Origin: Cyanobacteria bacterium auto_48_18
GTDB taxonomy: Bacteria; Cyanobacteriota; Vampirovibrionia; Obscuribacterales; Obscuribacteraceae
NCBI GenBank assembly: GCA_036170915.1
Contig: JAVHQC010000029.1
Coordinates: forward strand, 96,001-160,000
Direction: 5' to 3'
DNA length: 64,000 bases
Position 1 is the first letter of the stretch, and every line of letters starts with the position of its first letter. Of this stretch, positions 17,426 through 35,875 are shown piece after piece. Under the pieces are notes generated by a model, which was not told where the DNA came from, searched no databases, and was given only the letters and a program-made list of their open reading frames with translations. Both the position numbers and the translations under genes were made by a program.

Positions 17426-18145
17426 TTATTTCCTCAACATCAAAGACTGCAAAAGCATTTTTGCTTCAGGCCATTCGTGTTCCAGCATTCGATACCAGGC
17501 AGTGTCGCGATTGCGGCCCTTAACGATAAAATGACTTTCTTGTATACCTTCAAATTTAAATCCCATGCGTAAGGCCGCTTTTCTTGAGCGTTCATTTAAA
17601 GCATCACACTTCCACTCGATTCTTCTGTAGCCAAGCGAAAATGCATGGTCAAGCAAAAGATAAGTGGCTTCAAGATTGGCATTGGTGCCTTGCACAACTG
17701 GGCTGTACCAGATGTTTCCCAGTTCAATTTTCAAATGAGCAGGAAAATTATTCATATAGTTAACCACGCCTACTTGCCGGTTTGACGCTTTATCAAAGAC
17801 ACAAAAACATAAACCATTGTCGGCTTGAACCTGAGCAAATAAAAAAGCAGCTAGTTTGCAGCTGGTGGGGAAAGGCCCGGCCGACATGTATTTCCAGATT
17901 AACTGATCAGGGTCATAAGCCGGTACAGCTTTGCCGTCGCCCGTGGCAACAATAGGATCACCGTTAGAAAGGGAAAACAAAGTGGCGTTATCTCGCTGCA
18001 AATCAATGGGCTCGAGCCTGACAATTTCTCCGTCTAGAGTGATTGCAGTTGGTTTAGTAGGTAAATCGACTATGCGCGCCAGAGTTTCAGTGGCCAGTTG
18101 ATCGCCAATCTTTGTCTCATTTTCTGGGTTAGTTTCAAACAGCAT
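17426..18145 (-). CDS. GNAT family N-acetyltransferase (RimJ/RimL-like)
   Basis: IELGNIWY, GYRRIEWKCDALNERSRKAALRMGFKFEGI, KGRNRDTAWY. Confidence 0.88.
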   Translation of the reverse strand: MLFETNPENETKIGDQLATETLARIVDLPTKPTAITLDGEIVRLEPIDLQRDNATLFSLSNGDPIVATGDGKAVPAYDPDQLIWKYMSAGPFPTSCKLAAFLFAQVQADNGLCFCVFDKASNRQVGVVNYMNNFPAHLKIELGNIWYSPVVQGTNANLEATYLLLDHAFSLGYRRIEWKCDALNERSRKAALRMGFKFEGIQESHFIVKGRNRDTAWYRMLEHEWPEAKMLLQSLMLRK

Positions 18146-18347
18146 TTTTCATATTCGCTCTGTGACGCTTGAAACTATAGCAATTAAGCGGTGCAGCGAA
18201 GTCACGAGTACGCCACAATTTGAAATTAGATTCAATAGGCGAAGCAAGAAATCTACCATTGGTGCAAAATTCTGCCACGGTAATGATAGATACATGTGAC
18301 TATATTGGACGGTCGGACATTTACCACTAACTTTACGGCAGGTCACC

Positions 18348-19001
18348 ATGAGAAGTAATCACTTCAATCAGGGTTTCTTTTTCACGTGTTTACTTTTCTG
18401 CGCAGTTTTGCTGCAGCTTCTCTCGCCACCCTCTGCCCAGGGGCAACAACGCCGACTGCCGCCCTGCCGCTTAGATAGTTTCGTCCATCAGGCCGGCAGC
18501 GCCGCCGAAGCGATATATGGCGACGAAGGCATTAGAACCCCTCCACCATTTTTCGGATTTGGCCAGCAGAATCGCATTGCCAGTGGTTTCTTCGGCACTA
18601 GAGACCAGGGCCTGACCACCGGCCACGGCAGCCACATGCCCAGCGCCTGGGGAGCAGACGAGTTTGTCAGCCCGCCGGGGGAATGGTGTGATAGTGGCCC
18701 CAACAATGGCCGCAATGTTTACTCAGGCGCAACCGACAACACTTATGATGTCAGCGAACAATTACTCAGCCTCGAGACTGGTATTGAAGCGATGCGAAAA
18801 AGAATCGCTGCATTTAACGACAATATTTCTACCCTGCATTCCATACTTGCTAGCTTGAGCCCCGCAGACAAAGCCGGTCAACAAGCAATCGCCAACGAAG
18901 TAAACAGACTCGTGACCGAACGCAATCAGATGCTACTAAACCTACACACTGCTCAGCAAGAAGCAGCCAACAATTTTGGAAAAAGGACTGGCGGTTCGTA
19001 A
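18348..19001 (+). CDS. hypothetical exported protein with C-terminal coiled coil
   Basis: Signal peptide, Gly/Pro-rich core (LDSFV, IYGDEG, GLTTGHGS, SAWG), heptad-like C-terminus. Confidence 0.65.
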   Translation: MRSNHFNQGFFFTCLLFCAVLLQLLSPPSAQGQQRRLPPCRLDSFVHQAGSAAEAIYGDEGIRTPPPFFGFGQQNRIASGFFGTRDQGLTTGHGSHMPSAWGADEFVSPPGEWCDSGPNNGRNVYSGATDNTYDVSEQLLSLETGIEAMRKRIAAFNDNISTLHSILASLSPADKAGQQAIANEVNRLVTERNQMLLNLHTAQQEAANNFGKRTGGS

Positions 19002-19771
19002 CATGCTCGCATTCGATATGCCAATTTGCGAAACCGAAGTGAGACGTCAAAAACTGATGTCATAAATTCGAATTTTGTAGGCTGAAAATTTTCACACGTC
19101 TTCAATTCCGTCTACACACTTTCTGTAATTGCTACTGTGTCTTGCTGGTATGAGTTCCGGTGCTACTGTTACCAGCTGCGGTTTCTATCCTCAATTCGCC
19201 AGCCCATGAAATAGTCATGTCGATAGCTAAAGCGCGAATGTGATTTGAATCAAGTGCCGGTCGACTGACTATTTGATAAAGTTGTCGGTGTTGGAGCGAA
19301 ATGGCTCGACCATATCTTTGTTAGAAATACTGGTCGGAAAATTTTTACCCAATTTGGTCCGTTTAGAATTGCCATTGCTTAGTCTCTAATTCCTATCTGA
19401 CTTCTATTTCGAGCATAGCAAACTCACATATTTGATAGAACCAAAAGTGGTGCGCGTAGTATTTCGATTTTACGATCAAGTCCGGAAAACGATGAGCCGA
19501 CAGTTATACAGACAGTAGAATTAAGAGATTTCTAATGTCCGTTGCTGAGCCGTTACGAAGCGTTCCAGCGAGGGCAAAATTTTAGATATGGCCCCTTGCT
19601 GCTGTCACTTGCGAATTATTTTCAAGTCTCTAGTAAAACGCCTCAGGTAACCCGGTAGATCATTCGCAGGTATTCGAGGTCACACAGGCGCGGGCCCAAA
19701 AACTTATTGACTAACTTTTAGCTATTCGGTACTACGGTCTTTCTGAGTCGCAGTGCTGATTGAGGAGCACA

Positions 19772-21166
19772 GTGAGTGATTATCGTCGGCAACTTTTAAG
19801 TTGCTTTGGACAAACACGTATTTTGAGATTGGGGCCACCAAAGTGGCTTACGCTGCTTTGGTCATTGATTTTTTGTGGAGTGTTTGCGCTACCGGCCATG
19901 GCAACCACGGCACCAACGATCACGCCAGGCACAGGCGTTTACTCTACTGTGCGTCCTACGGCTACGATTACTGGAGATCCAGGAGCAGTCATACATTTCA
20001 CCACGAACGGAACCAGCCCGTCCGCTCTGAGCCCCATTTATACCGCTGCTATCCCACTGTCCGACAAGAATGTCATTAAGGCGATGGCCAGCTTGTCTGG
20101 CGTGGACAGCGCTATCACAACTGCTTATATCTTGAACGACCCTTCAAGTCTTCCCGTTCCGCGATCGGGATTGCAGCTGTGGTTACAGGGTGATTTAGGC
20201 CCTATAGTATCAGGCACAAATGTTACGCAGTGGAGCGATCTCTCTGGCGCCACTAACAATGCAACTCAGGGCACCATGGCTAATCAGCCGACTCTTCTGA
20301 CAAATGCCTTGCATGGATCAAGTGCTGTCAACTTCAATGGCACAAGTTCATATCTTACCCTGACGTCAGGGCTAAATGATCTGAGTGCTGGCACTTCACT
20401 TTACGCGGTGATTAGTCCGAACACGCCGACCGGAGCCAAGACACTCTACACAAGTGGGGCGGCCGGTGTCACTGATATGGTGAGCGTGCAGACCAATGGC
20501 ACCACTGCAACGGCTAACTTTAACAACGGGGCGACTGCAAGCAACATTGCTTCCGCCGCTGCAGCACTGGCGACTTTAAAGTACCAGGAGCTTGGTGTCG
20601 TCCACAACGGCGCTGCCTCTGCAACTATGGACGTCAATGCAGCTCCTGTGAAGACAGGAGCCGTGCAGAATTTGAACACGGTAAGTCGCACGGTCAACAG
20701 AATCGGCACCAGTAGTGCTTTAAGCGGTTATTGGGGAGGGAAGCTGGCCGAACTACTCGTTTATTCAAGAGCTCTTTCTGCTTCTGAGCACGCCAACGTC
20801 ACCGCATATTTGGCATCGAAGTATCAATTGAATTTCAACGCTACAACCCCGGCCCCGACTATAGCACCGGCAACCAGCACCTTGCTAGAACCAGGGCAAG
20901 TGGCCATATCAGCCAATCCGTCGGCCGAAGTGCGGGTGACGCGTGATGGCACGAACCCTACCATCAGCTCACCTTTGTACACCGGCCCGTTTACTGCATT
21001 TCACACTCAAACAATCAAAGCGATTGCAGTATATGCCACCGGCACCAGTGCCATATCGACATCCACATTGACTCTGAATTCGACAAAATATCCGGCACCA
21101 AACGCTTCGGATGCTCGGGAACTCAAAATCAACCTACAACTTCCAACAACAGGCATTGCACCATGA
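19772..21166 (+). CDS. secreted protein with CHB_HEX_C/Fn3-associated-like domains flanking a LamG/concanavalin-like domain
   Basis: GAGGAG RBS before GTG 19772, then a signal peptide. Two 'I(H/R)xT.DG(T)xP...SP.YT..I/F...IKA' modules. LamG-like 'GLQLWL...V.QW.D.SG..NNATQ...P...F.G...YL' and 'G.LAELLVYSRALS'. Its stop overlaps the next ATG (ATGA). Confidence 0.75.
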   Translation: MSDYRRQLLSCFGQTRILRLGPPKWLTLLWSLIFCGVFALPAMATTAPTITPGTGVYSTVRPTATITGDPGAVIHFTTNGTSPSALSPIYTAAIPLSDKNVIKAMASLSGVDSAITTAYILNDPSSLPVPRSGLQLWLQGDLGPIVSGTNVTQWSDLSGATNNATQGTMANQPTLLTNALHGSSAVNFNGTSSYLTLTSGLNDLSAGTSLYAVISPNTPTGAKTLYTSGAAGVTDMVSVQTNGTTATANFNNGATASNIASAAAALATLKYQELGVVHNGAASATMDVNAAPVKTGAVQNLNTVSRTVNRIGTSSALSGYWGGKLAELLVYSRALSASEHANVTAYLASKYQLNFNATTPAPTIAPATSTLLEPGQVAISANPSAEVRVTRDGTNPTISSPLYTGPFTAFHTQTIKAIAVYATGTSAISTSTLTLNSTKYPAPNASDARELKINLQLPTTGIAP

Positions 21167-22791
21167 AGGACCTAATGCAAAGAGTAAATGCAAAGCTCAA
21201 AATGTCGCAGTTGAAGCCCGTGCCCGGAACAAACAGGCTAGCGTGCGTATGCCTGGCGGCCGTGTTTTTGCTCAGTCAGTTTACCCCAGCATTGGCGCTA
21301 GCACCAGTTACAGAACCACCTGTGGTACCACCACCACAATTAGTGGCACCGCAGCCGAAAAATGGCGTCAAAACTGGCCCACGTTCTGTAACTCAATTCA
21401 TCGCAAAAAGTGTTCTGAGTGCTAACCCAAGCGATCTTGAAATTGCCACAACACGAATCTTTTCCGAACCGCTCACTCCGGTCGGTAGCGAATTGGTAAG
21501 CGGTGAGAATCAGGCTATCGCAAGTCTTGTTCAGTCGTTAAAAGTTAAAGCCGCCCCAGAAGATGTATCAGCGCTGACGAATTTCATTTCGGCATTTCCT
21601 ACTTCTCGCTGGACACCTAGCATTGAGAGCAACCTGGCTGAGCTGTACTCGCGCACAGGCTACCTCACGCGTGCCATTGCCGGTTGGAAGGCTGTTTGGG
21701 AAAGAACAAAAACTGAAAAAGGCACCGCTCAAATAGCAGTCGCAAATCATGCCATGGCAAATCTTCTCACCACGTATGCGCGGTTGGGAATGAAAGAGGA
21801 ATTGAAAAGTCGCTTTGCCGAAATCGAAGGACGACCATTTTTTGGCAGTGATGAGACCAAGATTAATGGTGCCCACATTGGCTACTTGGACATGCTCGGA
21901 AATGAGCAGCACGCCTTCAAATGCGGCCCATACGCGATTAATACCCTTTTCAATTTAGAGAAAAACACAAAAACTCGCCACCCAATTATTGAGAAGGCTG
22001 CATCAACTGCCAAAGGCACCAATCTGCTTCAAGTGAAACAATGGGCCGATCAAGTAGGGCTGAAAATGCAGGCAGTGAAGCGCACTGCGGGCGGTGCCAT
22101 AGTGGTGCCATCAATTATGCACTGGAAATTGCAGCACTTTGCGGCCATCGTTGCCGAGAAAAACGGCAAGTATCTTCTAAAAGATCCAACATTCGATAAT
22201 GACGGAAGCATCTGGGTTTCGTCGGCGGCGTTAGATGAAGAAAGCGACGGTTACTTTTTAATTCCTACTGCAAAAGCATTACCTGCTGGTTGGCAGTTAG
22301 TCACCGATGAAGAGGCGAAGTCTGTTTGGGGTAAAGGCGGATCGCACGAGGCCGATCATAATGAGAAAGGGTGCAATGCGCCGTCTTCTGGGGCACAGAG
22401 TTGTGAGAAACCCTGTGGTATGGCGGTAGCGTCTGCTTACAGTATGCAAGCCACCTTAACTATTGCAGATAAGCCGCTTTTCTATCAGCCTCCAGTCGGG
22501 CCTGCCATCGATCAGGTTGTCACCTACGACCACCTCCAAACTAACCAACCAAGCACTTTCACATTCACGAATCTTGGGCAGAACTGGAACTTCAACTGGC
22601 TCTCTTACCTGACTGTTGACCCAATCACTTCAGTTGCCACTCTGCGCAAAATGGGTGGTGGTTCAGAGATTTATGCTCCAGACATTGTTACTGGCCTCTA
22701 CTCACCCTCTTTGATGTCACAAGCCAAACTTGTGTACATCAGCCCCGGCGTGTACCAGAGGCAAATGCCAGACGGTTCAATGCAAGTCTAA
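21163..22791 (+). CDS. N-terminal part of a split RHS protein: signal peptide, TPR-like helices, C39-like cysteine peptidase, start of RHS region
   Basis: Signal ending FTPALA. C39-like KCGPYA...HW..QHF...KDP. Ends abruptly at ...PDGSMQV*, where the frame continues in -1. Confidence 0.8.
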   Translation: MKDLMQRVNAKLKMSQLKPVPGTNRLACVCLAAVFLLSQFTPALALAPVTEPPVVPPPQLVAPQPKNGVKTGPRSVTQFIAKSVLSANPSDLEIATTRIFSEPLTPVGSELVSGENQAIASLVQSLKVKAAPEDVSALTNFISAFPTSRWTPSIESNLAELYSRTGYLTRAIAGWKAVWERTKTEKGTAQIAVANHAMANLLTTYARLGMKEELKSRFAEIEGRPFFGSDETKINGAHIGYLDMLGNEQHAFKCGPYAINTLFNLEKNTKTRHPIIEKAASTAKGTNLLQVKQWADQVGLKMQAVKRTAGGAIVVPSIMHWKLQHFAAIVAEKNGKYLLKDPTFDNDGSIWVSSAALDEESDGYFLIPTAKALPAGWQLVTDEEAKSVWGKGGSHEADHNEKGCNAPSSGAQSCEKPCGMAVASAYSMQATLTIADKPLFYQPPVGPAIDQVVTYDHLQTNQPSTFTFTNLGQNWNFNWLSYLTVDPITSVATLRKMGGGSEIYAPDIVTGLYSPSLMSQAKLVYISPGVYQRQMPDGSMQV

Positions 22792-22826
22792 ACCAGTCAG
22801 ATGCCAGTTCGCCGCCACGTATTTTC

Positions 22827-25800
22827 ATGACCCAAGTAATTGACAAAGCGGGTAATGCTGCGCTTGTTCAGTACGACTCCAACTTCAGGCTGACCAGTCT
22901 CACTGACTCGATCGGCCAGGTTTCGACTGTAAATTACGTTTCTAATACTTTGGGAAATGTCGGCTTCTACAAAATTAGTTCCATCGTCGACCCTTTTGCA
23001 AGATCATGCTCGTTCACCTGGGATTCAACAACAACTTTACTTTTAAGCATCACCGACGTAGTTGGCTTAAAATCCCAGTTTACGTACGACCCATCTTCAT
23101 CGTTTATCACGTCGATGACCACGCCGTATGGCACTTCAAGTTTCTATAAATATGTGCCCACCTATGCCGGTCCATATCCTGCACAAGGTCTGAAAATAAC
23201 ATATCCTGACGGTACTTCTGATGTTTTAGAAAGTTTTCTCTCAGTCGAACAAATTACCTACTTCTGGGACCGACACGCTAACCAACTTTATCCCGCAGAT
23301 CCCGCTAATCAAATTTACACTCACTGCGAGCAGATGAAATGGCTGCTTGATTTCAGTACTTCACTGATGAAGCCGGTTTATCAGTATGCTATCCATCCAT
23401 TAGAAAGTGCCAGCCCTATCTATTACCGCTCTCAAGGCCAGGGTGCCAGCTCCAATTTCATCGGCACCACCAACAAGATTACTGAGGCAAAGCGCAACAT
23501 TGGTAACGCCATCACAATTGCAACAGTGGGTGGCACGGTTGTTACCGGCGACCAATTCTACCTGGGGGCCGACGGACAGGCTCAGATTTATTATTCTGTG
23601 CAGGCAGGCGACACTCTTACTTCTATTACGAGCAATCTGATTGCGCAAGTAAATTCCAACCCTGGCATGCAGGGTGTGGGCGTTACTGCTGTGCAAATTT
23701 CCCCAACATCGTTCAGTTTGCATACAGATAGCCCCCTTGTGGCGCAGTACAGATATGCGCCTTTTGGGGGCGTTGTTCTCACTATCGCTATGCGATCTCA
23801 ATCGGAGCAAACGGCCAATGTCACCATTGGCGGTACCATGACTGTCGGCGATACCGTCAACTTAGATATCGCCCTACCGTATCCCAATAATTTCTCTCAA
23901 CGCGTCACTCACACGGTCGTCGGTGGAGACACGCCTACCACTGTCGCCGCTTCAATGGCAGCAAAAATAAATGCTGACCCGCTTTTTGCTCAGTATCCCT
24001 ATGTCGGCACGTCTAGCGGGCCCGTTTTAAAGGTTTCGTCTTTTAGCGGAAAAGTCGTCGACTATGGCAGCTTCATTGGTGGATCGGGCAGCGAGTCAAT
24101 CGTTGTCTCTGATATTCGCAATGGCACCATTCAGCTTTCTACAAATAAATATAACCCCTTAGGAAAAATGACTGAGTCTGTGGACCCGGTCAATCGCAAG
24201 TTTTCCTATGTTTATGATTCAAACAACATCGATTTGCTTCAAGTAAAAGAAACGCAGAACGCTAATAATTTTCAGATGGAAGCTTGGACTTGGAATGCAA
24301 AGCACATGCCGCTCACCCACACTGATGGCTCCGGCCGTGTCAAAACTTACGTCTACAATTCGCTCCAGCAGCCCATCTCTGTCACTGATGCCAATTCGAA
24401 CGTCACGACGATGACGTATACTGGCACGTCTTCCGCCACCATTGGCGGCACTGTCACCGCCGGCAATGTGCTCACAATTACTGTATTTGACACTGGACTG
24501 GCTGGAGGTCAGAAGGCAGTAAATTACACGGTTATCGCCGGGAACACACTAACGACCATTGCCACCGGATTAAGAAATGCCATCAATGCAGACTCAAGCT
24601 TGCAGGCAATAGGAGTTACCGCCACATCAGCTGCGGCCGTGATTACATTGAAATCAAATTCGGTAAACGTGACTACCTACGCTCAATCTGTGAGCGGCGG
24701 TGCGACTGCAACTATTGCTTTGGGAGCAAACAGATTTGGCTATCTGACCAAAATAGATGGCCCACTTGCTGGCAGCCAAGACGTCACCACAATTTCTTAC
24801 GACGGATTCGGCAGAGTGTTCTCCGTTTCGAATTCCACAGGCTATACCAAAACTTTCAGCTATGACAATATGAATCGCCGTATCAGAACAACTCATCCCG
24901 ATAACACTTTTGAACAAACTGTCTGGAGTCGTCTTGACCCGGTGATGACAAAAGACAGAATTGGCAGATGGTCTCAAACTGCTTTTGACTCCATGGATCA
25001 AGTTGCTTTCGATATCGACTCGCTGGGCCGTAAAACTCAATATACCTGGTGCTCTTGCGGGTCAATCTTAACTTTGACCGACCCCGCGAACAACACAACC
25101 AGTTGGGGCCATGACCTTCAAGGCAGAACTACTTCCAAGACCTATGCCAACTCGACAGCAATAAATTATGCATACGAACCTTACGGCAGCAATTTGCGCT
25201 CGAGAACTGACGCCTTGAACCAAATTACAAATTATCTCTATTACCCGGATGATAAAATTTTCCAGACCAGTTACAAAAATGCTGTCAATCCAACTGCGTC
25301 GACGACAACTGCGTGGGACTCAAATTACGATCGGGTCAAAAGTATTCAGAAAAATGACTGGGGTACGATTGCTTACACTTATAATCCATATATTTTGCCG
25401 CTTGGCACTCCCACTACTGGCGGTGGCATGCTGCAGGTCGTACACAATGACAGGATGGCAAATTCAGACATAAGCTTCGTTTATGATAATTTGGGCCGAA
25501 CTACCAACCGCTCAATTAATGGCGCCGCAAATTCAAATTCTTGGACCTTCGATGCCATGAGCAGAGTAACTGGCGAGACTAATGCGTTAGGCAGCTTCGC
25601 CTATGCTTATGTAGACAATACTGCGGGTTCTTCTAAAGGCAGTACGCGCTTAGCGTCCGTTACTTATCCAAACAGTCAAGTGACTAAATACAGCTGGTAT
25701 CCAGCAATTGGGGATGAGCGCCTGCAACAAATTGCCAATTTAAAAACCAGCAGCGGTCCAACCATTTCTCAATTTAGCCATGTTTATAATCCAGCTGGAG

Positions 25801-28553
25801 AAATGACCCAATGGAACCAGCTGCAAGACAATAAGAGCGTCAATTACAGGCTGGGCTATGATCAGGCCGGCCAACTTACAGGCTCGCAAGCAAGCCCTGG
25901 CCAACCTTCAGCGAGTTATATCGGTCAAAATTATTTTGCCTATGATGTTGCCGCTAATCGCACCGCTGTGCAGCAAAATAGCGTCAATAGAGTTAGATTT
26001 GGAGGCACGGTCACCACTGGCAATGCTTTAACGATAACTGTCAAAGATTCGGCGTTAACAGGCGGACAAAAAGCCCTAGTTTATACGGTCGTTGGCGGAG
26101 ACACCTTATCGACGATCGCGACTAAATTTGCTGCGCTCATTACCGCCGATACAGATATGCAGGCACTCGGTGTCAATGCTTCGGCCAATGGGCCGATGAT
26201 GAGCATCAAATCTGCATCGCCAAATATCACTACATACTCTCAATCCACCAGCGGCGGTGCCACCACTACCATTGCTTTAGGCGTCACCGGCAATTTTGTT
26301 GAAAATGCGGTAATTGGTGGCACCAAGACCACAGGAAATATAATCACAATAACGGTGAGTGATGCTGCTTTAGCGGGCGGACAAACAGCCATTAATTACA
26401 CCGTTTTAGCCAGCGACAACCTGACCACGATGGCTACAGGCCTTAAAAACGCGATAAATGCAAATGCTGGCCTCACTGCAGCCGGAGTAACTGCGACTTC
26501 GGCCGGAACTGCGATTACAGTTAAATCAACATCTGCCAACGCAACCACTTACTCTCAATCAACAAGTGCTGGCGCCACTGCCACAATTTCGCTTTCGATC
26601 AATCAAAACGGTCCGCAGACAATCGCACTATCGGGGACAAAGACCACCGGCGATACCATTACAATTACGGTTTATGATGCAGGTCTCGCTGGCGGTTTGA
26701 AAGCAGTGACCTACACCGTGCTCGCCGGCGACACATTGACCAGCATTGCGACAGGGTTGGCGGCTGCGCTGACAGCAGATTCAGCTCTGCAAGGAATTGG
26801 AGTCAGTGCCACAGCAGCAGCGACCGTGGTCACGCTACAGTCCAACTCGATAAATCAAACTATGCTTCGCGAAACCACAAGCGCAACTGCTACCGAACTT
26901 ATCTCAATAAATATTCCAGCCAATGGTGTTCAAACCGCTGTTATCGGGGGAACAAAGACCACCGGTGACGTGGTAACTATCACCACATATGATGCTGCTC
27001 TCGGTGGGGGTACGCAGGCCGTAAATTACACAGTCTTGTCTGGCGATACTCTAACTTCTATTGCTACTGGGCTCGCTGCCGCAATTACAGCGAATGCAAG
27101 TTTGTCTGAAATTGGCGTCTCTGCGACCTCTTCTTCGACCGTAGTCAACGTAAAATCAACTTCGATTAACAACACGACTTATGCAAAATCGACCAGCGGT
27201 GGTGCCACTGAAACAATTACGCTTGCCCGAGTAATGACTGTTGGCCAATATGGATACAATAATGTTAACGAGCTAACTAGCATTACGGCTGGCGGCGCCA
27301 CAAGATTTCAAGGAACTACAAACAAGCCATTAAAATCAGCGACGGTAAATAGTCAGCCAGCGACCCTCAACTGGACGGAAAGTTTCACTGGCAATGCCGT
27401 GTTAAGCAATGGCGCAAATAATGTGCCGGTTAGTGCTACAGATGGTGCAAACAATGTCAAAACACACAATTATCAAATTCCAATTGCAGGGCCGGGAGGC
27501 TCGACCCTAACGTTTGATGCCAATGGCAATATGACGAATCATGGAGCAAATTTGTATGCTTGGGATGTTGAGAACCGGTTGATTAAAATTACATATCCAG
27601 GAACCGGAAATTATAGTCAATTTCTCTATGATGCTACGGGAGTTGTTGGCCAGGTTACTGAAACTATTGCAAGTAGTCTCAGCAGCACGAAGCAATTTAT
27701 TCGCTGCAATTCGACAATCTGTGAAGAGCGCAGCGCAACTAGCACTTTGACAAAGCATTTTTTTGAAAGCGGGCAAACTTTAAGCGGCGCAGTTTATTTT
27801 TACACTTTGGACCATACTGGCTCTGTAAGGGCGATGACAGACAACTCTGCCGCAGTGCAGGCTCAATATGATTATGGTCTGTACGGCCAAGCGACCAAAA
27901 TTTCCGGTGCCCTTGATGCAGATTTTCAGTATGCCAGATACTACTCACATCAGCCAAGCCAGCTTAGCCTTACGCTTTACCGAGCTTACAACCCCGCTCT
28001 TGCGCGGTGGATCAATCGCGACCCCATACGTGAGCTGGCGAATATCAATCTCTACTGTTATGTCCATAACAGGCCCCTTAATTACGTTGATCCCCTGGGA
28101 TTAGGTGAATTTCAATATGTGGGATCAGGAACATTTAATAGTAAGGCAAAGGGCATAATCGATAAACTGAAAAAGTGTCCAGCCATGAAACCAGTCTTTA
28201 AGAACATCGCCGACGGACCATTGAACGTTATGGTTGGTCCCGCAGAGCCGGGCTATATGCCAAATACGGAACTTGACCCGGCATCAGGTCTTGTTATAAA
28301 CCTTGATTTTTACGTTGACGTAACAGGTCATGCAGGCTCCATAATTGCCGGACCTGATATTCAAGCAGCTCATGAGTTAGGCCATGCTGAGGATATTGAA
28401 CGCAATAGGAACTCAAGGGCTGATGACAAGAAAAACAGAGCTAGGTGTGAAAAACATTGTGTCGAATTAGAAGATGCAGTTCGAGCATGGACGGGAGCGC
28501 CCGGCGAGCCACGAAGAAGTTACTCAAATGCGCAAGGAATGACTTATCCATGA
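22827..28553 (+). CDS. C-terminal part of a split RHS/YD-repeat polymorphic toxin with inserted repeats and a C-terminal HExxH domain
   Basis: Many YD repeats. RHS core 'YRAYNP.LARWINRDPI...NLYCYV.NRPLNYVDPLGL'. HELGH at 28371-28385. Confidence 0.9.
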   Translation: MTQVIDKAGNAALVQYDSNFRLTSLTDSIGQVSTVNYVSNTLGNVGFYKISSIVDPFARSCSFTWDSTTTLLLSITDVVGLKSQFTYDPSSSFITSMTTPYGTSSFYKYVPTYAGPYPAQGLKITYPDGTSDVLESFLSVEQITYFWDRHANQLYPADPANQIYTHCEQMKWLLDFSTSLMKPVYQYAIHPLESASPIYYRSQGQGASSNFIGTTNKITEAKRNIGNAITIATVGGTVVTGDQFYLGADGQAQIYYSVQAGDTLTSITSNLIAQVNSNPGMQGVGVTAVQISPTSFSLHTDSPLVAQYRYAPFGGVVLTIAMRSQSEQTANVTIGGTMTVGDTVNLDIALPYPNNFSQRVTHTVVGGDTPTTVAASMAAKINADPLFAQYPYVGTSSGPVLKVSSFSGKVVDYGSFIGGSGSESIVVSDIRNGTIQLSTNKYNPLGKMTESVDPVNRKFSYVYDSNNIDLLQVKETQNANNFQMEAWTWNAKHMPLTHTDGSGRVKTYVYNSLQQPISVTDANSNVTTMTYTGTSSATIGGTVTAGNVLTITVFDTGLAGGQKAVNYTVIAGNTLTTIATGLRNAINADSSLQAIGVTATSAAAVITLKSNSVNVTTYAQSVSGGATATIALGANRFGYLTKIDGPLAGSQDVTTISYDGFGRVFSVSNSTGYTKTFSYDNMNRRIRTTHPDNTFEQTVWSRLDPVMTKDRIGRWSQTAFDSMDQVAFDIDSLGRKTQYTWCSCGSILTLTDPANNTTSWGHDLQGRTTSKTYANSTAINYAYEPYGSNLRSRTDALNQITNYLYYPDDKIFQTSYKNAVNPTASTTTAWDSNYDRVKSIQKNDWGTIAYTYNPYILPLGTPTTGGGMLQVVHNDRMANSDISFVYDNLGRTTNRSINGAANSNSWTFDAMSRVTGETNALGSFAYAYVDNTAGSSKGSTRLASVTYPNSQVTKYSWYPAIGDERLQQIANLKTSSGPTISQFSHVYNPAGEMTQWNQLQDNKSVNYRLGYDQAGQLTGSQASPGQPSASYIGQNYFAYDVAANRTAVQQNSVNRVRFGGTVTTGNALTITVKDSALTGGQKALVYTVVGGDTLSTIATKFAALITADTDMQALGVNASANGPMMSIKSASPNITTYSQSTSGGATTTIALGVTGNFVENAVIGGTKTTGNIITITVSDAALAGGQTAINYTVLASDNLTTMATGLKNAINANAGLTAAGVTATSAGTAITVKSTSANATTYSQSTSAGATATISLSINQNGPQTIALSGTKTTGDTITITVYDAGLAGGLKAVTYTVLAGDTLTSIATGLAAALTADSALQGIGVSATAAATVVTLQSNSINQTMLRETTSATATELISINIPANGVQTAVIGGTKTTGDVVTITTYDAALGGGTQAVNYTVLSGDTLTSIATGLAAAITANASLSEIGVSATSSSTVVNVKSTSINNTTYAKSTSGGATETITLARVMTVGQYGYNNVNELTSITAGGATRFQGTTNKPLKSATVNSQPATLNWTESFTGNAVLSNGANNVPVSATDGANNVKTHNYQIPIAGPGGSTLTFDANGNMTNHGANLYAWDVENRLIKITYPGTGNYSQFLYDATGVVGQVTETIASSLSSTKQFIRCNSTICEERSATSTLTKHFFESGQTLSGAVYFYTLDHTGSVRAMTDNSAAVQAQYDYGLYGQATKISGALDADFQYARYYSHQPSQLSLTLYRAYNPALARWINRDPIRELANINLYCYVHNRPLNYVDPLGLGEFQYVGSGTFNSKAKGIIDKLKKCPAMKPVFKNIADGPLNVMVGPAEPGYMPNTELDPASGLVINLDFYVDVTGHAGSIIAGPDIQAAHELGHAEDIERNRNSRADDKKNRARCEKHCVELEDAVRAWTGAPGEPRRSYSNAQGMTYP
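23520..27225 (+). repeat. seven ~100-105-aa protein repeats inserted in the RHS region
   Basis: GG/SG anchor codons at 23529, 23829, 24444, 26001, 26316, 26631, 26946. The last four have an exact 315-nt period. Confidence 0.9.
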
Positions 28554-29542
28554 AGTTACGCGTCTACTTTTTGATACTTCTAATTATGATTAGTTTGCAA
28601 AAATTCAATGCAATCTCTAAACCAATGTCGGGACAATTGAAGTTGCAGTATGGGGATTTACGGCCGTTTCTTATCGGTATCAGTCCACTCAATTATTTCG
28701 CAAGAGACAAAGAAACAATGCCCGCGGTAGCCAAATTAGCAAAAAAAATGGGCTATACCAATGTTAGTTTTTGTGGCGTTTTTCTTACGGCTGATCCCAA
28801 TTCAATCTTCATTCTACTCTCAGATGATTTGCATAAAGTTTCTAACGAACGATCGCTCTTACTGTTTTCAATTAACCGGAAATCTGGCAGCTCAAAATAT
28901 GTGCGCTCATTTACGTACAGACTGATACGCACCGTAGCTTTTGCTAATGAACTAAGTAGATTTGATCGGTTTTCTTTTCAAAAGAGTATGAATTACTCCT
29001 CTTCCAAAAAAAACAACTTATTAATCTCTGAGTCCATATTGGATTCTGCACTTCGCAGCAATCGCGAATTTAACGATGTGATGCGCTTCAAAGGCTGCAT
29101 ACCATACAAAGATGGACGAATGATATATTATCTAGAAACTGCTTTCCTATATGCTAAGCCGGTGGCTAAGAGACGTCTGTACGTTTCGGATAAGAGCAAT
29201 AAATCTATTGAATTTTGTTGTGAGTTCGATGAATCAATGAATATTGATGTCATGAATTCGGTTCTAAATTCCAATACCCTTGAGCAACTCCCAAAGCATA
29301 GTTTTCTCGAGTTGATTAAAGCACCAAAATGTCGCCTTTCTGACATTGACCCTAGACTAGTAGGCGGGGCTGCTGTATATGCGGAAATACGATTAAAGTT
29401 TCCATGTAGCGATCCTGACGTTCGAGGTTGGAAGCATGGACCACTATTGATAACTCTTTATTCTCTTAAGTCCTATGATCGCTGTGCTTTTTTTATGACA
29501 AACAAAGGACGAACAAAGCTCGAAGCTGTGTGGCTTAGATAG
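28550..29542 (+). CDS. putative immunity protein (signal peptide, AT-rich)
   Basis: ATG 28550 overlaps the RHS stop (ATGA). Hydrophobic leader MKLRVYFLILLIMISL. Visibly more AT-rich than neighbouring genes. 330 aa. Confidence 0.6.
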   Translation: MKLRVYFLILLIMISLQKFNAISKPMSGQLKLQYGDLRPFLIGISPLNYFARDKETMPAVAKLAKKMGYTNVSFCGVFLTADPNSIFILLSDDLHKVSNERSLLLFSINRKSGSSKYVRSFTYRLIRTVAFANELSRFDRFSFQKSMNYSSSKKNNLLISESILDSALRSNREFNDVMRFKGCIPYKDGRMIYYLETAFLYAKPVAKRRLYVSDKSNKSIEFCCEFDESMNIDVMNSVLNSNTLEQLPKHSFLELIKAPKCRLSDIDPRLVGGAAVYAEIRLKFPCSDPDVRGWKHGPLLITLYSLKSYDRCAFFMTNKGRTKLEAVWLR

Positions 29543-29756
29543 CTGACAAAGCGCAACTGATTCACATGGCGATTCTTGGGACGTAGATAATCTAGGAGTT
29601 ATGTTGGCCGTCAGCGGCGCATGTCAACTAAGTGGATTTAGAAGATCGATGAAAGCTCCACTCATTACTGTGTAAATCCATGCCGTCGAGCTGCGCTGAT
29701 AATAAGCAAGTAATAACCACTATTGAGAAGCGTAGCAAAGACAAATCTTAGTCCTT

Positions 29757-32582
29757 TCATTTCGAGATAATTGTGCTCGCGGCAATGCGCTCGGCATTTT
29801 CTTTCAGCCACCGTTGTGCACCTTCCGCATTTGAAAATTCACCCTCGCGCTGTGCTTCGCGAGCCGCTTCAAGCACGGTTTTAAATTGTGGACCAGGCTT
29901 CATATTGATAGCCAACAACATATTGCCATTAACAATCGGCTTCTCACCCAGCTTGCCTGATTGCTTTAAGTCTTCGAGTTTTTGCAAGAGAAAATCGCGG
30001 CGAGATTTATCAGAGTCTGGTTTTTTTGTGCCCGTCGCATCAGCGTGCTGAATTTCAATTAGATCCATGATGTCAGGCCGCTCTAAAAGAGCAGTGAGCT
30101 TACCTGGTCGTAAGCTTTGCACTTCATGCATAATCATATGCAGACGCACTAGCTCGGTTACGCGTTGTTCTTGATTGCTCGACATTTTTAAACGCCTGGC
30201 GATGTCGTGAGTTAATTCAGCACCTTTGGCGTCGTGGCCATGATTGCTGATGCCGCCATCAGGCCAGATTTTTTGCGTGGCCGGTTTACCCACATCGTGC
30301 AGGAGGCCGCCCATCATGCGTTCAAAATCACCACCGGTAAGATTCTTCAATACATATTTAGTGTGGGTCCAGACTGTTCCTTCCGGATGATGCACCGGAT
30401 CTTGCCTGCCCTTGGGCCCTCTTAGTTTATAAACTTCAGGCAGTACTTGTTTCATCAAACCAGAGTCCATCATAATTTGCATACCGCGCACCGGATTTGA
30501 TGACAGCAAGATGCCTTTGATCTCGTCCCGAATACGTTCATTTGATACGGCATGAATGCCTATGGAATTGGCTTTGATAGCAGCCAGGGTAGCCGGATCA
30601 ACTGTGAAGCCTTCGTATTTAGAAGCAAAGCGCGGCACACGCATCATGCGCAATTTGTCTTCGCTAAAGCGCAAATTAGGGTCACCCACCGCGCGAATAG
30701 TCTTGCCGGCAAGGTCGTGTTGACCACCGTAAAAGTCATAAATAGTTCCGCTAATTGGATCTTGAAACATAGCGTTAATTGTCAAATCTCGCCTGGCAGC
30801 ATCGGCCGACAGTGAAGTAACAAACTGCACTCCGTCTGGCCGGCGACCATCACTGTAAGTGCTTTCAGAGCGCAAAGTGGCGATTTCAAACTCTCGGCCG
30901 TTCACCACTACATTGATCACGCCAAAGGCTTTTCCTACCGGTATTACTTTGTAGCCCTGATCGATGAAAAGTTTTTCTACTTGATCAGGAGTGGCCGACG
31001 TGGCGATATCGTAATCTTTAGGAGTTTTGCGCATTAGCAAGTCACGCACAGCACCACCAGCGAAGACACCAATATGTTGTTTGTCTTGCAGTGTTTGCAC
31101 CAGGTGCGCACCGAGCTCGCGTTGATAGGCAGACTCAGCTTCAGCACTCAAGTCTGACTTAACTTCACCTTCTTCTAAATGTTCATTTTTCGGCTGTCCT
31201 TTTGCAGCAGGAGCAATGCCGTGATCATGATCGCCATGGAAATCTACTGCTGGTCTGAACTTGCCATTGCTGGCTTCAAAAAGAGAAAATTCCTGTTTCC
31301 AGTGTTGCTCATAAGTGAGTTGACCCACTTTCAAATTTGGTATCAGAGCCGCAAGCGATGCTACTTGCACTTCAGAAGGTTGAGAAACTTTTGTTTTGCC
31401 CAGCTCTGAATTTATTTTTGCCTCCGTGAAACGGGCATCGATCTCTTGAGTCAGTCTGGTTTCTCTAAACAATTGCCAGGCTTCAGTACTCTTACCATCT
31501 TGCAAAAGTTTGGCACTAGCCTGAAAATTCTGCTCTTGTGCGCCGTTACTTTTTTGACTTAAGTGTTTTAATTCATGACCTAGCTTTGCGGCATCAGCTC
31601 CCGCTTCCAGCTCCACTCGTTTTGTGCCGAGAGCCAGCGATTGAGGAGCATCACTCTGAATGCGTGCCCACGGATTTTCATTGACAATATTTTTAAATGT
31701 TGGCGAGGTAGCGGCGTCGCCGGCAAATTCAGTCTGCACCAGCCTATCAACTGGCACGCCGCGTCCTGTAGCCAGATTAAAATGATCGGCTGCCCGGGCC
31801 ATGGCTTTTTGACCCACAGGCAGAGCGTGACTCATTACTATTCCACCTGCAGCGGCCTTGACGAGAGTTTCGCCGTCGGCCAGTTTGCCTTCGGCAATGG
31901 CAGTCGACGTGAGAGTCTGCACGCCGCCACCAATTGCGCCTGTGGCTGTGCGGGTGAGGATGCGACCAACTAGGCCACTTTTAGCGGCCAGCATATTTCC
32001 CACTTCGAAAACGCCAAATCCGGCAGCGCCGGCAACACTGTTGCCCAGGCGAGACTCACCCTGGCGAACTTCTCTGGCACCGTCATAGGCAAAGGCACCG
32101 ACAACCGACGCCAGCGATTGGCTTTGCGCGAGCCTGGCAGCACCGCCTTCTAGAGCCAAACTTGAACCACCAGCTCTCATAGCGGAGCCCGCTGCCTTGC
32201 CGGCGATAACGTACGGAATAATTGCCCCCAGGCCGCCAGAGACAGTTTGCGCAGCCCAACCGGCTGACAAAAATTGGGCCTCAGCCACGTGCATGTGCTC
32301 GAAAGGTTTAATTAACGGAGCCGCATCGCCCTTACTTGCGCCCGCCCGACCTGTAGCATCATAAACAGCATTAATACCAGAAATAACTGTATTGGCCGGC
32401 TCAAGCACACCAGCGTTAAAAGCAGGAGCGACTACATTTTCTTTGACGGTGGTCAGTGTCTCTGAGACCAGATTAGCGCTGGCTTGCTGCCCTGCAGCTA
32501 CATAGGCGTCGCCCAGCTCCTTAAATTTCGGAGCCCTCAAATCGGAATCGCCAGTACTGTGAGGGGTGAGGGGCATGCCCAT
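29757..32582 (-). CDS. CCA-type tRNA nucleotidyltransferase with HD domain, fused to a ~490-aa N-terminal extension
   Basis: GGAVRDLL..DYDIAT, RRDLTINAM, FSEDKLRMMR, ERIRDE, HHPEG.VW.HT, LLHDVGK. The extension has Gly/Ala-rich helices and HELKH. Confidence 0.88.
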   Translation of the reverse strand: MGMPLTPHSTGDSDLRAPKFKELGDAYVAAGQQASANLVSETLTTVKENVVAPAFNAGVLEPANTVISGINAVYDATGRAGASKGDAAPLIKPFEHMHVAEAQFLSAGWAAQTVSGGLGAIIPYVIAGKAAGSAMRAGGSSLALEGGAARLAQSQSLASVVGAFAYDGAREVRQGESRLGNSVAGAAGFGVFEVGNMLAAKSGLVGRILTRTATGAIGGGVQTLTSTAIAEGKLADGETLVKAAAGGIVMSHALPVGQKAMARAADHFNLATGRGVPVDRLVQTEFAGDAATSPTFKNIVNENPWARIQSDAPQSLALGTKRVELEAGADAAKLGHELKHLSQKSNGAQEQNFQASAKLLQDGKSTEAWQLFRETRLTQEIDARFTEAKINSELGKTKVSQPSEVQVASLAALIPNLKVGQLTYEQHWKQEFSLFEASNGKFRPAVDFHGDHDHGIAPAAKGQPKNEHLEEGEVKSDLSAEAESAYQRELGAHLVQTLQDKQHIGVFAGGAVRDLLMRKTPKDYDIATSATPDQVEKLFIDQGYKVIPVGKAFGVINVVVNGREFEIATLRSESTYSDGRRPDGVQFVTSLSADAARRDLTINAMFQDPISGTIYDFYGGQHDLAGKTIRAVGDPNLRFSEDKLRMMRVPRFASKYEGFTVDPATLAAIKANSIGIHAVSNERIRDEIKGILLSSNPVRGMQIMMDSGLMKQVLPEVYKLRGPKGRQDPVHHPEGTVWTHTKYVLKNLTGGDFERMMGGLLHDVGKPATQKIWPDGGISNHGHDAKGAELTHDIARRLKMSSNQEQRVTELVRLHMIMHEVQSLRPGKLTALLERPDIMDLIEIQHADATGTKKPDSDKSRRDFLLQKLEDLKQSGKLGEKPIVNGNMLLAINMKPGPQFKTVLEAAREAQREGEFSNAEGAQRWLKENAERIAASTIISK

Positions 32583-34206: not shown

Positions 34207-34438
34207 ACACGCGACCTCGTCAAACCTTAAGCATGTATTTCCCTGCTCATTGCGGATTCTAATAAGCTTCCTAGCCTGTATCCATCCTAGTCAAAGTGTC
34301 CAGGCTTGTCAGCAGGGTTAACCCTGAGTTCTTGTTTGCGTTAACAACTCGGCAACACCGTAAACCTATGGTGTAAATGTCTCCACCGGGCGACTTGCCA
34401 CGAGAGCTTTGGAAACACTTACTAGAGGGCGCATCAAC

Positions 34439-35875
34439 ATGACGTTAGAAGCAGGCATAGGAGCGAAAGTCGAGACAGCAATTGCTACTAATCCCGACAA
34501 GCCTAATTTCGGTGAAGTGTACAAAGATTGGAAGAACAACGAAAGTAAAGAAGAAAATCAAAAAGAACGCGCTGCAATAAATGAAGCGCTACACAAAGGT
34601 AAAAAGATACTTCCCTCTGTGTCAATTATCGATTTTGGCACCGTCGCTGCTGACGGTGGCATCGTTGATTATGTAGATACCTATGACTCTGAAACCAATA
34701 AGATGCAGCGGCGCGACCTGAAAGATTTTTCCGTCAAGCAAGAGAAAGATCTTACTGAAGAAATGAAGCGAGACGGGCTTAATGACGAGCAGGTTGTTAA
34801 ACTTTTGGCCGACTCAGTCGACAAGAATAAAGATAAACCGCAAACAACCACTGATGCTAAAGCCGATGTAAAACCTTACCAAATCCAGCCTGGCGACAAT
34901 CTTTGGAAAATCGCAAAGAACGAGCTAAATGAGATTAACAAAGCCAGCGGTGACGTCGATAAAAAACCTTCCACAAAAGATATTCAAGACTTCATTCAAA
35001 AAATACAGCAAGCCAACCAGAGCGGTGACGGTGCAATAGAAAATATTGACCGCATTTATGCCGGAAAAACATTGAACATACCTGTGGCGAAAACAAAGGC
35101 TGAGAAGTCCGACAGCAATTACGTAGCTCCTAATCCGGACGTAACACCTACTCCAGACAAAACTCCTACACAGGACGTAGTTAAAAATACCTCGGCTAGT
35201 ATTCCAGCCAGTCCATTTAAAGCCGAAGCAAATACCTACGCCAATCCTACAATTGGAGCTGATCAAGCCAAAGAAGAAGCAGAAGTATTGAACAAATACT
35301 TCGACAAGATGCGCACCTTAGACGGCGATCCATCCGGAGCAGAATATCTTACGGCTGATGAAATAAAAGGTTTCGTCGCTGCTTCTAAAGATAAAACAGC
35401 AATAGTCGAAGGTGAACCAATTCCTGATGCCCAAGAAATTGCAGCGTTGGAAAGAGCCGCCAAACACATACATCGCATCGCCGGTACTAATGACGACGAG
35501 TTCTTCTTCGAATCAAGCGGAGCGACTAGGAAAGACATAGAGGGTTTTGCTGAGCAAGAAAAAGAATTCGAAGGAAGGTATCAAGCACGGTTCTATCTGG
35601 ACAATCATTTCAACAATCTCGCCGGTGAAAAAAACGCTGTCTCAGTCAGCCAGATAAAAGAGTATCGGGAAAAACTTAGTGTTGATTCCACAAAAGCGGC
35701 AGAGTTGGTTGCCGTCGACAATCTGCTTGACCAGCTCAAGAAGGCTGGATATAGAGACGGCTCCCCTGTGCTGAGAGGTGATTCCAAGGAGATTCGCAAG
35801 GAAGTCCGCGGCTTCTCTTACCAAGAGCACGGTGGCGCATACATTCCAGTACCGGTGAAATCACCCACAAAATAA
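34439..35875 (+). CDS. LysM-domain protein with EF-hand-like motifs
   Basis: YQIQPGDNLWKIAK...IENIDRIYAGKTLNIP (LysM with an insert). DGDPSGAEYLTADEI is EF-hand-like. GAGG RBS before ATG 34439. Confidence 0.7.
   Translation: MTLEAGIGAKVETAIATNPDKPNFGEVYKDWKNNESKEENQKERAAINEALHKGKKILPSVSIIDFGTVAADGGIVDYVDTYDSETNKMQRRDLKDFSVKQEKDLTEEMKRDGLNDEQVVKLLADSVDKNKDKPQTTTDAKADVKPYQIQPGDNLWKIAKNELNEINKASGDVDKKPSTKDIQDFIQKIQQANQSGDGAIENIDRIYAGKTLNIPVAKTKAEKSDSNYVAPNPDVTPTPDKTPTQDVVKNTSASIPASPFKAEANTYANPTIGADQAKEEAEVLNKYFDKMRTLDGDPSGAEYLTADEIKGFVAASKDKTAIVEGEPIPDAQEIAALERAAKHIHRIAGTNDDEFFFESSGATRKDIEGFAEQEKEFEGRYQARFYLDNHFNNLAGEKNAVSVSQIKEYREKLSVDSTKAAELVAVDNLLDQLKKAGYRDGSPVLRGDSKEIRKEVRGFSYQEHGGAYIPVPVKSPTK

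Follow-up and report, generated by a model that had tools for sequence, protein, structure and literature searches.

WapA of Gram-positive bacteria is a YD-repeat toxin with a variable tip, an immunity gene and Sec export, and it has no outer membrane to cross; to our knowledge, neither a C39 peptidase nor a partner gene belongs to it. The aspartyl chemistry of tip release is known from other Rhs proteins. Rhs toxins of type VI secretion systems (T6SS), of which Photorhabdus Rhs1 is an example, are reported to be cleaved at a D-P-V motif immediately ahead of the shell (PMC8636562). According to the available part of a 2025 preprint, all 56 RRhs F II toxins are linked to gspG and type II secretion is predicted for them, and its accessible main text contains no occurrence of 'C39' or 'signal peptide' (10.1101/2025.05.08.652813). 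The passages available for Bcn-A of Xanthomonas perforans report that activity is lost in an xpsD mutant (PMC7259588), and those for StbD-CT, a CdiA-like C39 toxin, report self-cleavage in cis that is subject to redox control (10.64898/2026.05.07.723447). Here, we analysed a three-gene putative RHS toxin locus with an N-terminal C39 peptidase domain, located in a 64,000-nucleotide stretch (hereafter the window) of contig JAVHQC010000029.1 from Cyanobacteria bacterium auto_48_18, a member of the Obscuribacterales.

The window probably holds a frameshifted, likely inactive copy of an RHS toxin system with a swappable tip, which is likely exported, is predicted to cut itself at both ends of its shell and likely docks a modular partner for surface binding. 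The three genes lie on one strand and are joined by ATGA overlaps at 21163-21166 and 28550-28553, as the initial annotation had reported, and each starts with a hydrophobic stretch (best 12-residue Kyte-Doolittle means of 2.3, 3.1 and 3.0 for genes 1, 2 and 3; a heuristic). Pfam recovered the proposed series of CHB_HEX_C_1/Fn3_assoc, Laminin_G_3 and CHB_HEX_C_1/Fn3_assoc domains in gene 1. In gene 2, the TPR-like helices, C39, the Cys-rich linker, YD repeats (PF05593, E 4.4e-23), the Rhs core, seven inserted repeats of about 100 residues, DPLGL and HELGH were all found, while the proposed Ig-like insert returned only a weak Glucodextran_B match below the Pfam cut-off. Gene 2 had been treated as one reconstructed gene; it runs as two open reading frames (ORFs) in different frames, a frameshift whose consequence had not been drawn. 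The features are as follows.

19760..21166, + strand: gene 1, 468 residues counted from the first start codon; the true start is uncertain, and the initial annotation took GTG 19772
21077..21163, + strand: C-terminal tail of gene 1 (Y/W-P-A-P...L-x-I-N-L-Q-L-P), candidate docking or sorting motif
21163..22791, + strand: gene 2, first piece, 542 residues; signal-like N-terminus, TPR-like helices, C39, leader-like motif, Cys-rich linker and first shell strands
21505..21900, + strand: TPR-like helical domain, about residues 115-246
21910..22272, + strand: C39 peptidase domain, residues 250-370, with the triad C254, H325 and D341
22291..22338, + strand: double-glycine-leader-like motif and predicted self-cleavage site, W377..V380..E384 A385..V388.G390 K391 G392
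22339..22416, + strand: variable Cys-rich linker before the shell; predicted local distance difference test score (pLDDT) <50 for most of it
22789..22826, + strand: frameshift break between the pieces of gene 2, judged from ORF frames, homologue spacing and identical letters in a Logan contig
22827..28553, + strand: gene 2, second piece, 1908 residues; RHS/YD shell with inserted repeats, Rhs core and tip
23517..24113, + strand: inserted repeats 1-2 (divergent)
24432..24731, + strand: inserted repeat 3
25989..27233, + strand: inserted repeats 4-7
27297..27479, + strand: Ig-like insert (weak; Glucodextran_B E 1.4e-4, under the cut-off)
27873..28103, + strand: Rhs core with both aspartate motifs (RWINRDP...VDPLGL), TIGR03696 E 5.3e-17
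28104..28553, + strand: variable tip, 149 residues, with HELGH at 28371-28385; a look-alike search points to a zincin-like metallopeptidase
28550..29542, + strand: gene 3, 330 residues; hydrophobic N-terminus; 38.8% G+C; candidate envelope-located immunity protein

In the mechanism that we propose for intact members, the products of genes 1 and 2, which start with signal-like stretches, would cross the inner membrane by Sec, and a type II or type IV-pilus secretin would take them across the outer membrane. The C39 domain would then bind the leader-like motif that follows it and cut after G-K/R, parting the signal, TPR and C39 parts from the shell. The aspartyl site of the Rhs core, the motif of which is present, would release the tip after DPxG. 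The gene 1 product would dock by its constant tail and bring LamG domains, from none to five or more, with which to bind a target or a surface, and the AT-rich downstream gene would neutralise the tip; tip and downstream gene are observed to co-vary in the family, and gene 3 may take this part in the window. Self-processing, an immunity role of gene 3, an adhesive role of the repeats and the binding of glycans are predictions made from sequence.

The first piece of gene 2 was matched in 44 of the 104 genomes of the host's family, in two of them only weakly, and in none of 300 other genomes sampled across the phylum (E<=1e-20). Sixty loci were drawn from these matches, with long open frames favoured and with kin that are not independent; intact homologues are frequent among them (35 intact, 14 truncated where the contig or region stops and 11 broken or partial). 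The initial annotation had placed the system in a poorly studied lineage, a confinement that did not survive the wider search. Of 121 protein matches, the named ones include Roseimicrobium, a Verrucomicrobia bacterium, Bradyrhizobium and Agrobacterium; homologues also occur in Nitrosospira; 117 plasmid records carry the first piece (Ralstonia 108, Rhizobium 5, four others); and the preprint describes a gspG-linked Ralstonia Rhs family. A GenBank annotator had labelled the Rhizobium etli gene 'Rhs repeat-associated core/peptidase C39-like'. The source genome (G000, 86% complete) has a single Rhs core, which is that of the window, and no orphan module. Elsewhere, a signal-bearing RHS protein (L122:871-6453) has a C39-like CG motif straight after the signal and no TPR part, which suggests a second C39-RHS layout.

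The C39 peptidase and the leader-like motif

The head of gene 2 was modelled with 43 sequences (mean pLDDT 77) and judged by confidence and secondary structure. Its TPR part gave a profile match to CpoB (6G5S, E 6.5e-5), and the model aligned with the TPR domain of YbgF (2XEV) at Z 10.7 and a root-mean-square deviation (rmsd) of 3.3 over 123 aligned residues. The C39 part matched Pfam PF03412 (E 8.4e-12) and, by profile, LahT (E 2.1e-6). Upon modelling, it aligned with ComA (5XE8) at Z 12.9 and rmsd 2.7 over 119 residues, and the peptidase domains of ComA, LahT and PCAT1 matched the model at Z 12-13 over residues 250-370. The catalytic triad is invariant, with C254, H325 and D341 kept in 116/116, 118/118 and 119/119 of the rows covering each position.

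Beyond the end of the C39 fold lies a motif with the consensus W377-x2-V380-S/T-x2-E384-A385-x2-V388-W-G390-K/R391-G392. The pattern, with A or G permitted at -7, occurs in 99 of 120 homologues at 35-41 residues past the catalytic Asp, and elsewhere it gave 13 matches in 248,922 residues. The Ralstonia protein has identical motif spacing, with G-M-G at the site. Numbered with K391 as -1, the residues V380, E384, A385, V388 and G390 occupy -12, -8, -7, -4 and -2; the spacing equals that of positions -12, -8, -7 and -4, through which LahT and ComA recognise substrates according to the accessible part of the LahT study (PMC6363468). The G at -2 is invariant (119/119 rows), and G stands at +1 in 117 rows. 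In the model, residues 380-389 reach pLDDT 97 with a short helix, confidence falls just past G-K-G, and the motif appears to pack on the modelled C39 domain. The Cys-rich linker that follows is 17-80 residues long and holds 1-6 Cys in 120 rows, and the D-P-V cut motif of the T6SS type was present in 0/120 homologues. We are inclined to read these features as self-cleavage by C39 at the bond between G-K/R and the next G, with an atypical P1 residue.

Several observations weigh against self-cleavage. The -1 position in the 99 motifs is K (87) or R (12) and never G, A or S, and the motif is therefore called leader-like and is not counted as a member of the double-glycine leaders; the available part of the LahT study ties the small residues at the LahT cut site to a narrow pocket (PMC6363468). 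Position -7 is mostly A or G, not L. The usual Gln at the sixth position ahead of the catalytic Cys is replaced, by P in 104 rows and by E in the window, and the role of that Gln is itself questioned by the LahT structure, as far as the accessible text goes (PMC6363468). Motif peptides gave 0/42 matches to NCBIfam models, mutual information over 118 rows stayed at noise level, and the order of the motif in the model may reflect likeness to solved C39-leader structures.

The unusual residues at P1 and -7 and the 42 unmatched peptides would also suit a toxin in which the motif serves as a structural or auto-inhibitory lid and C39 acts on a partner or on a protein of the target surface. C39 can be toxic in its own right, as the accessible parts of two sources state for StbD-CT and Tox-PL-C39 (10.64898/2026.05.07.723447, PMC3482391). 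However, the glycines kept at -2 and +1, the model order that ends at G-K-G and the absence of the alternative D-P-V motif argue against a lid, which we consider unlikely, and self-cleavage remains our preferred reading. A literature search that was sparse in subscription journals turned up no description of an RHS protein with a C39 at its N-terminus.

Variable tips, downstream genes and the gene 1 partner

In most complete homologues, DPLGL is the point at which similarity to gene 2 stops. The 69 core-end modules comprise 43 primary genes plus orphans and pieces; their tips are mostly unrelated, with 20 pairs matching at E<=1e-3, bearing out the expectation of a variable C-terminus behind a conserved N-terminus; none of them matches the tip of the window. 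The first Asp motif is present in 36 of the 43 primary genes, and D-x-x-G in all 43, which is partly a result of the placement of the cut. Pfam matched 5 of 68 tips (Ntox37 three times, Ntox44 and DUF6973) in a scan that left out one near-duplicate and one 28-residue tip. The tip of the window resembles the Peptidase_M91 and PipA/M85 clusters by language-model (Atlas) features (0.96, 198/256 shared), with no Pfam match at E<=0.01. It has one homologue among 1.84 billion representatives, P0122, a short Rhs-core-plus-tip module. Querying with P0122 brought up 72 loci via its Rhs core, in none of which tblastn found a match to the tip, to gene 1 or to gene 3, and 0/255 pattern matches of the tip in metagenome contigs were confirmed.

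Tips co-vary with the genes behind them: the downstream genes are homologous in 6 of 13 pairs with homologous tips, compared to 3 of 1418 other pairs (1431 pairs in total). The G+C content of the downstream gene is below that of the RHS gene in 31/31 loci, and gene 3, described as AT-rich from the start, conforms (38.8% vs 47.6% for the RHS core). It is reasonably likely, judging from the family, that the AT-rich gene 3 neutralises the tip, and its hydrophobic N-terminus makes it a candidate for an envelope-located inhibitor. Matches among downstream genes include DUF4279, DUF1493, Clp_N, TPR and HEAT. Four candidate immunity genes (L045, L061, L072 and L094) have Clp_N and one (L087:10804-11238) has a ClpX zinc finger; L045 and L094 also have a common tip.

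On the other side of the account, 63 of the 68 tips are without a Pfam family, and 15 of 68 have no same-strand ORF of at least 60 residues right behind them and were omitted from the pair test. No downstream gene (0/51) matches a family named as immunity, and gene 3 found no homologue among 1404 candidates and no match in the Atlas, Pfam, NCBIfam or PHROGs.

The tips without downstream partners would also suit an alternative in which eukaryotes such as grazing protists or fungi are the target, or in which the protein works as a variable surface label or as an adhesin, and the downstream gene has a role other than immunity. The M91/M85 zincins that the window tip resembles have named members that are host-directed effectors, according to the available part of PMC3482391; many family-less tips are Pro/Gly- or Cys-rich; and the shell bears 4-11 inserted repeats. 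Nevertheless, the Ntox37 and Ntox44 tips, the co-variation of tip and downstream gene, the AT-rich downstream genes and the orphan modules are marks of interbacterial polymorphic toxins, and a mixed target range is possible. We regard a system directed at eukaryotes, or a surface label or adhesin, as rather improbable. At family level, the sequence features are those of Rhs polymorphic toxins and not those of T6SS Rhs proteins.

A gene 1 homologue lies upstream of the RHS gene in 57 of 60 loci, in agreement with the proposed synteny of the LamG gene. In the genome tally, 40 genomes have both genes, 2 and 2 have one of them and 60 have neither; weak C39-only genomes (G011, G103) and tail-less gene 1 matches (G032, G040, G097) are omitted from it. 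The homologues range from 153 to >2,100 residues, with 0-5 LamG matches in the 22 scanned. Versions of 153-157 residues that have no LamG rule out the lectin as what stays constant in gene 1. The constant part is the last CHB_HEX_C_1/Fn3_assoc (Ig-like) domain with the tail, and the lectin domains are optional. The tail was found on 55/55 C-terminal modules and 0/63 internal ones. In the model, it is unpaired with its own domain (pLDDT 55-68) and thus fits a docking or sorting motif. The view that the gene 1 product binds the gene 2 product is slightly favoured by these patterns.

The initial annotation had proposed a dedicated glycan-binding partner. Apart from the versions that lack LamG, three proteobacterial loci correct this view: in Ralstonia, Rhizobium and Nitrosospira no gene 1 homologue is directly upstream, a point that counts against a general partner role. 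The upstream positions are taken by a gsp cluster in Ralstonia, by three small secreted-looking genes and a YD gene in Rhizobium, and by a PEP-CTERM gene in Nitrosospira. In addition, the gene 1 profile was built from the same 60 loci, with kin that are not independent. Fusion of a gene 1 module to an RHS protein was not found among 20 matches of 820-2340 residues, which is weak evidence. A Roseimicrobium protein carries a gene 1-type tail, and its longest contig equals in length (9976) that of the Roseimicrobium RHS protein, a hint that the two may adjoin. On the Rhizobium etli plasmid (L101:6530-9824), three similar secreted-looking genes and a 94-residue YD-repeat gene stand directly upstream of the C39-RHS gene, and the downstream DUF4279 gene is missing from the record's gene table. 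At L158:1-1536, a gene ends 13 nt before the RHS gene with a tail (QPFQVIVTRP) that loosely resembles that of gene 1; by this locus, tailed upstream partners may be more general than gene 1.

The inserted repeats of the shell number 7 in the window and 4-11 in complete Obscuribacterales genes. Their profile matched a phage tail-sheath stretch (9CB9_A 92-168) at E 3.4e-6 over profile positions 4-85 (82/100), and repeat 2 matched phrog_165 tail sheath at E 1.2e-4. Matches of the profile to LysM proteins cover about 28-42 positions, with 23/43 positions in the best Pfam LysM stretch. LysM, a database label on homologues, was dropped as a confident name for the repeats; the whole LysM domain has about 43 residues. 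The repeats are probably surface decorations.

State of the window copy and route of export

The gap between the two pieces of gene 2 is 38 nt, at which homologues have 13 (16 cases), 11 (21) or 10 (1) residues, and the break is therefore a frameshift. A Logan contig from X1, the single run in which the stretch was found (word depth about 13), spans 18000-31000 with 0 differing letters and 0 gaps. This excludes an assembler quirk and does not exclude a shared error, as X1 may have come from the source sample. A hydrophobic N-terminus is missing from the second piece, and the break falls within the first strands of the shell; we therefore read the copy as very probably a recent pseudogene, from which, with much the same confidence, no exported toxin is expected.

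A sequencing artefact, or a break that is read through in a functional copy, is improbable to a similar degree as a eukaryotic target, if anything slightly more so. It would agree with a break that is the sole one in 7.4 kb, with the 51-63% identity to an intact relative on either side of it and with a stretch found in one run at a word depth of about 13. Against it, the separately assembled contig has the same letters at the break, no slippery run was seen at the site, and 11/60 related loci also carry broken copies.

The export route was considered for the family as a whole. A hydrophobic stretch lies within the first 70 residues of 90/120 homologues, compared to 3/120 control stretches, and a Tat motif was found in none (heuristic). 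The initial annotation had proposed a system independent of T6SS, which was supported: the sheath gene TssC/VipB was found in 0/104 genomes, 38 near-complete ones included; no VgrG was found in the source genome; and among the window ORFs scanned (7 + 37) there was no Pfam match to PAAR, VgrG, EagR, Tc or CdiB. At the Ralstonia GMI1000 homologue (L099), which is divergent from gspG, gspF-, gspE- and gspD-like genes stand behind gspG; gspG lies within 5 kb upstream at this locus, whereas the window has no gspG. The source genome has one PilQ/GspD-like secretin together with PilB/GspE- and PilC/GspF-like genes, on other contigs. The signal-like N-termini, the missing T6SS sheath gene, the Ralstonia gsp cluster and the need of Bcn-A for xpsD make Sec followed by a type II or type IV-pilus secretin the likely route. 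It counts against this route that two of the three secretins in the source genome look Tad-type and that the scanned ORFs of the window included no type II secretion gene. At L105:8624-13632 (source genome contig C35), two tandem secretin genes have T2SS-T3SS_pil_N domains (Tad type), and the three neighbours that were scanned include no pilus genes.

Cargo of a T6SS or of an extracellular contractile system encoded elsewhere, to which the tail-sheath likeness of the inserted repeats would tie the protein and for which an only 86% complete genome leaves room, is extremely unlikely and was dropped, given TssC/VipB in 0/104 genomes, a contractile sheath C-terminal domain in just 3/104 (one of which, G043, has an RHS gene), signal-like N-termini that speak against contractile cargo, and named Verrucomicrobia and Proteobacteria homologues without the repeats.

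Some neighbouring features were noted as well. Promoter and terminator scans stayed at chance level (13 vs 15.6 and 13 vs 12.2), and no holder of RNA is listed for the stretch. Converging on gene 3, a gene on the - strand (29757-32582) encodes a CCA-adding/poly(A) polymerase-like enzyme with an HD domain and an N-terminal extension of about 480 residues with Ala/Gly-rich hydrophobic stretches, which may be a secreted or membrane-linked fusion. At 57552-58811 (+), a 420-residue protein matches Pfam ATLF (E 1.8e-9, residues 202-349) and no NCBIfam model, and probably has a zinc-peptidase-like domain. At 34409-35875 (+), a 488-residue protein has a LysM-like stretch by eye and no Pfam match at E<=1e-4. 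The genome has two VIT/VWA-type proteins (window 12037-14706 (+) and L106:4214-7153), one of them near a secretin gene on contig C31.

Comparison with known systems

Among these traits, toxin shells, variable tips and Rhs export independent of a T6SS had been described or predicted before. A signal-TPR-C39 head with its motif, a tailed modular partner and sheath-like inserts were not found in the literature, and no paper describing RHS toxins in Obscuribacterales or Melainabacteria was found, in searches that covered few subscription journals. A wider picture, which we hold to be somewhat less likely than not, would also agree with the features: a cross-phylum, secretin-exported RHS class, in which a TPR-C39 head with a leader mimic in cis would replace the PAAR/VgrG head and its aspartyl cut, the new cut would fall at the non-canonical G-K/R|G bond and might be redox-gated by the neighbouring Cys-rich linker, a separate adaptor in Obscuribacterales and Verrucomicrobia would plug in by its conserved tail and set targets by its number of lectin domains, and the shell would bear domains derived from a tail sheath.

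RHS function without a T6SS is an open matter in Gram-negative bacteria, where the 2025 preprint merely predicts type II secretion for gspG-linked families. The present family provides a conserved head of signal, TPR, C39 and leader-like motif, in which a single bond and a single catalytic cysteine can be named; if the cut is real, the specificity of C39 would extend to a basic P1 residue. Non-photosynthetic Cyanobacteriota also contribute, through this family, a putative modular partner for targeting and >60 tips outside any known family. As the head is carried by 108 Ralstonia megaplasmid records, it is likely part of a system of interbacterial competition in plant-associated bacteria. The window copy is of lesser importance because it is broken.

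Compared with T6SS Rhs1, as far as its description is accessible (PMC8636562), the family shares the YD shell, the C-terminal aspartyl motifs, a variable tip (9-20 kDa) and an N-terminal trafficking part before the shell. It differs in having signal, TPR and C39 parts and no PAAR, VgrG or EagR, and in replacing the D-P-V site by C39 and a leader-like motif. With the C39 domains of ComA, LahT and PCAT1 it has in common the fold, the Cys-His-Asp triad and the hydrophobic spacing of the motif (PMC6363468, available part). In contrast, it has no ABC fusion and is predicted to be extracytoplasmic, its motif is in cis and C-terminal to the peptidase, G-K/R takes the place of G-G/A/S, and the conserved Gln before the Cys is missing. 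StbD-CT, by the accessible account, is likewise a C39 in a polymorphic toxin, and here too a Cys-rich linker adjoins the site; its C39 is the variable toxic tip, cutting N-terminally at Gly-Gly, whereas the present one is a constant N-terminal part. Bcn-A, compared by description from the available part of its report (PMC7259588), is an Rhs-family protein found in the supernatant, needs xpsD and has a downstream immunity gene and accessory genes, but it has 1,398 residues and its accessory ORFs lie downstream. RRhs F II is a further close system: the Ralstonia homologue adjoins gspG, shows 32% identity over 86% of the first piece of gene 2 and probably belongs to that published gspG-linked Rhs family, whereas the window locus, without adjacent gsp genes, has an Fn3/LamG partner and seven inserted repeats.

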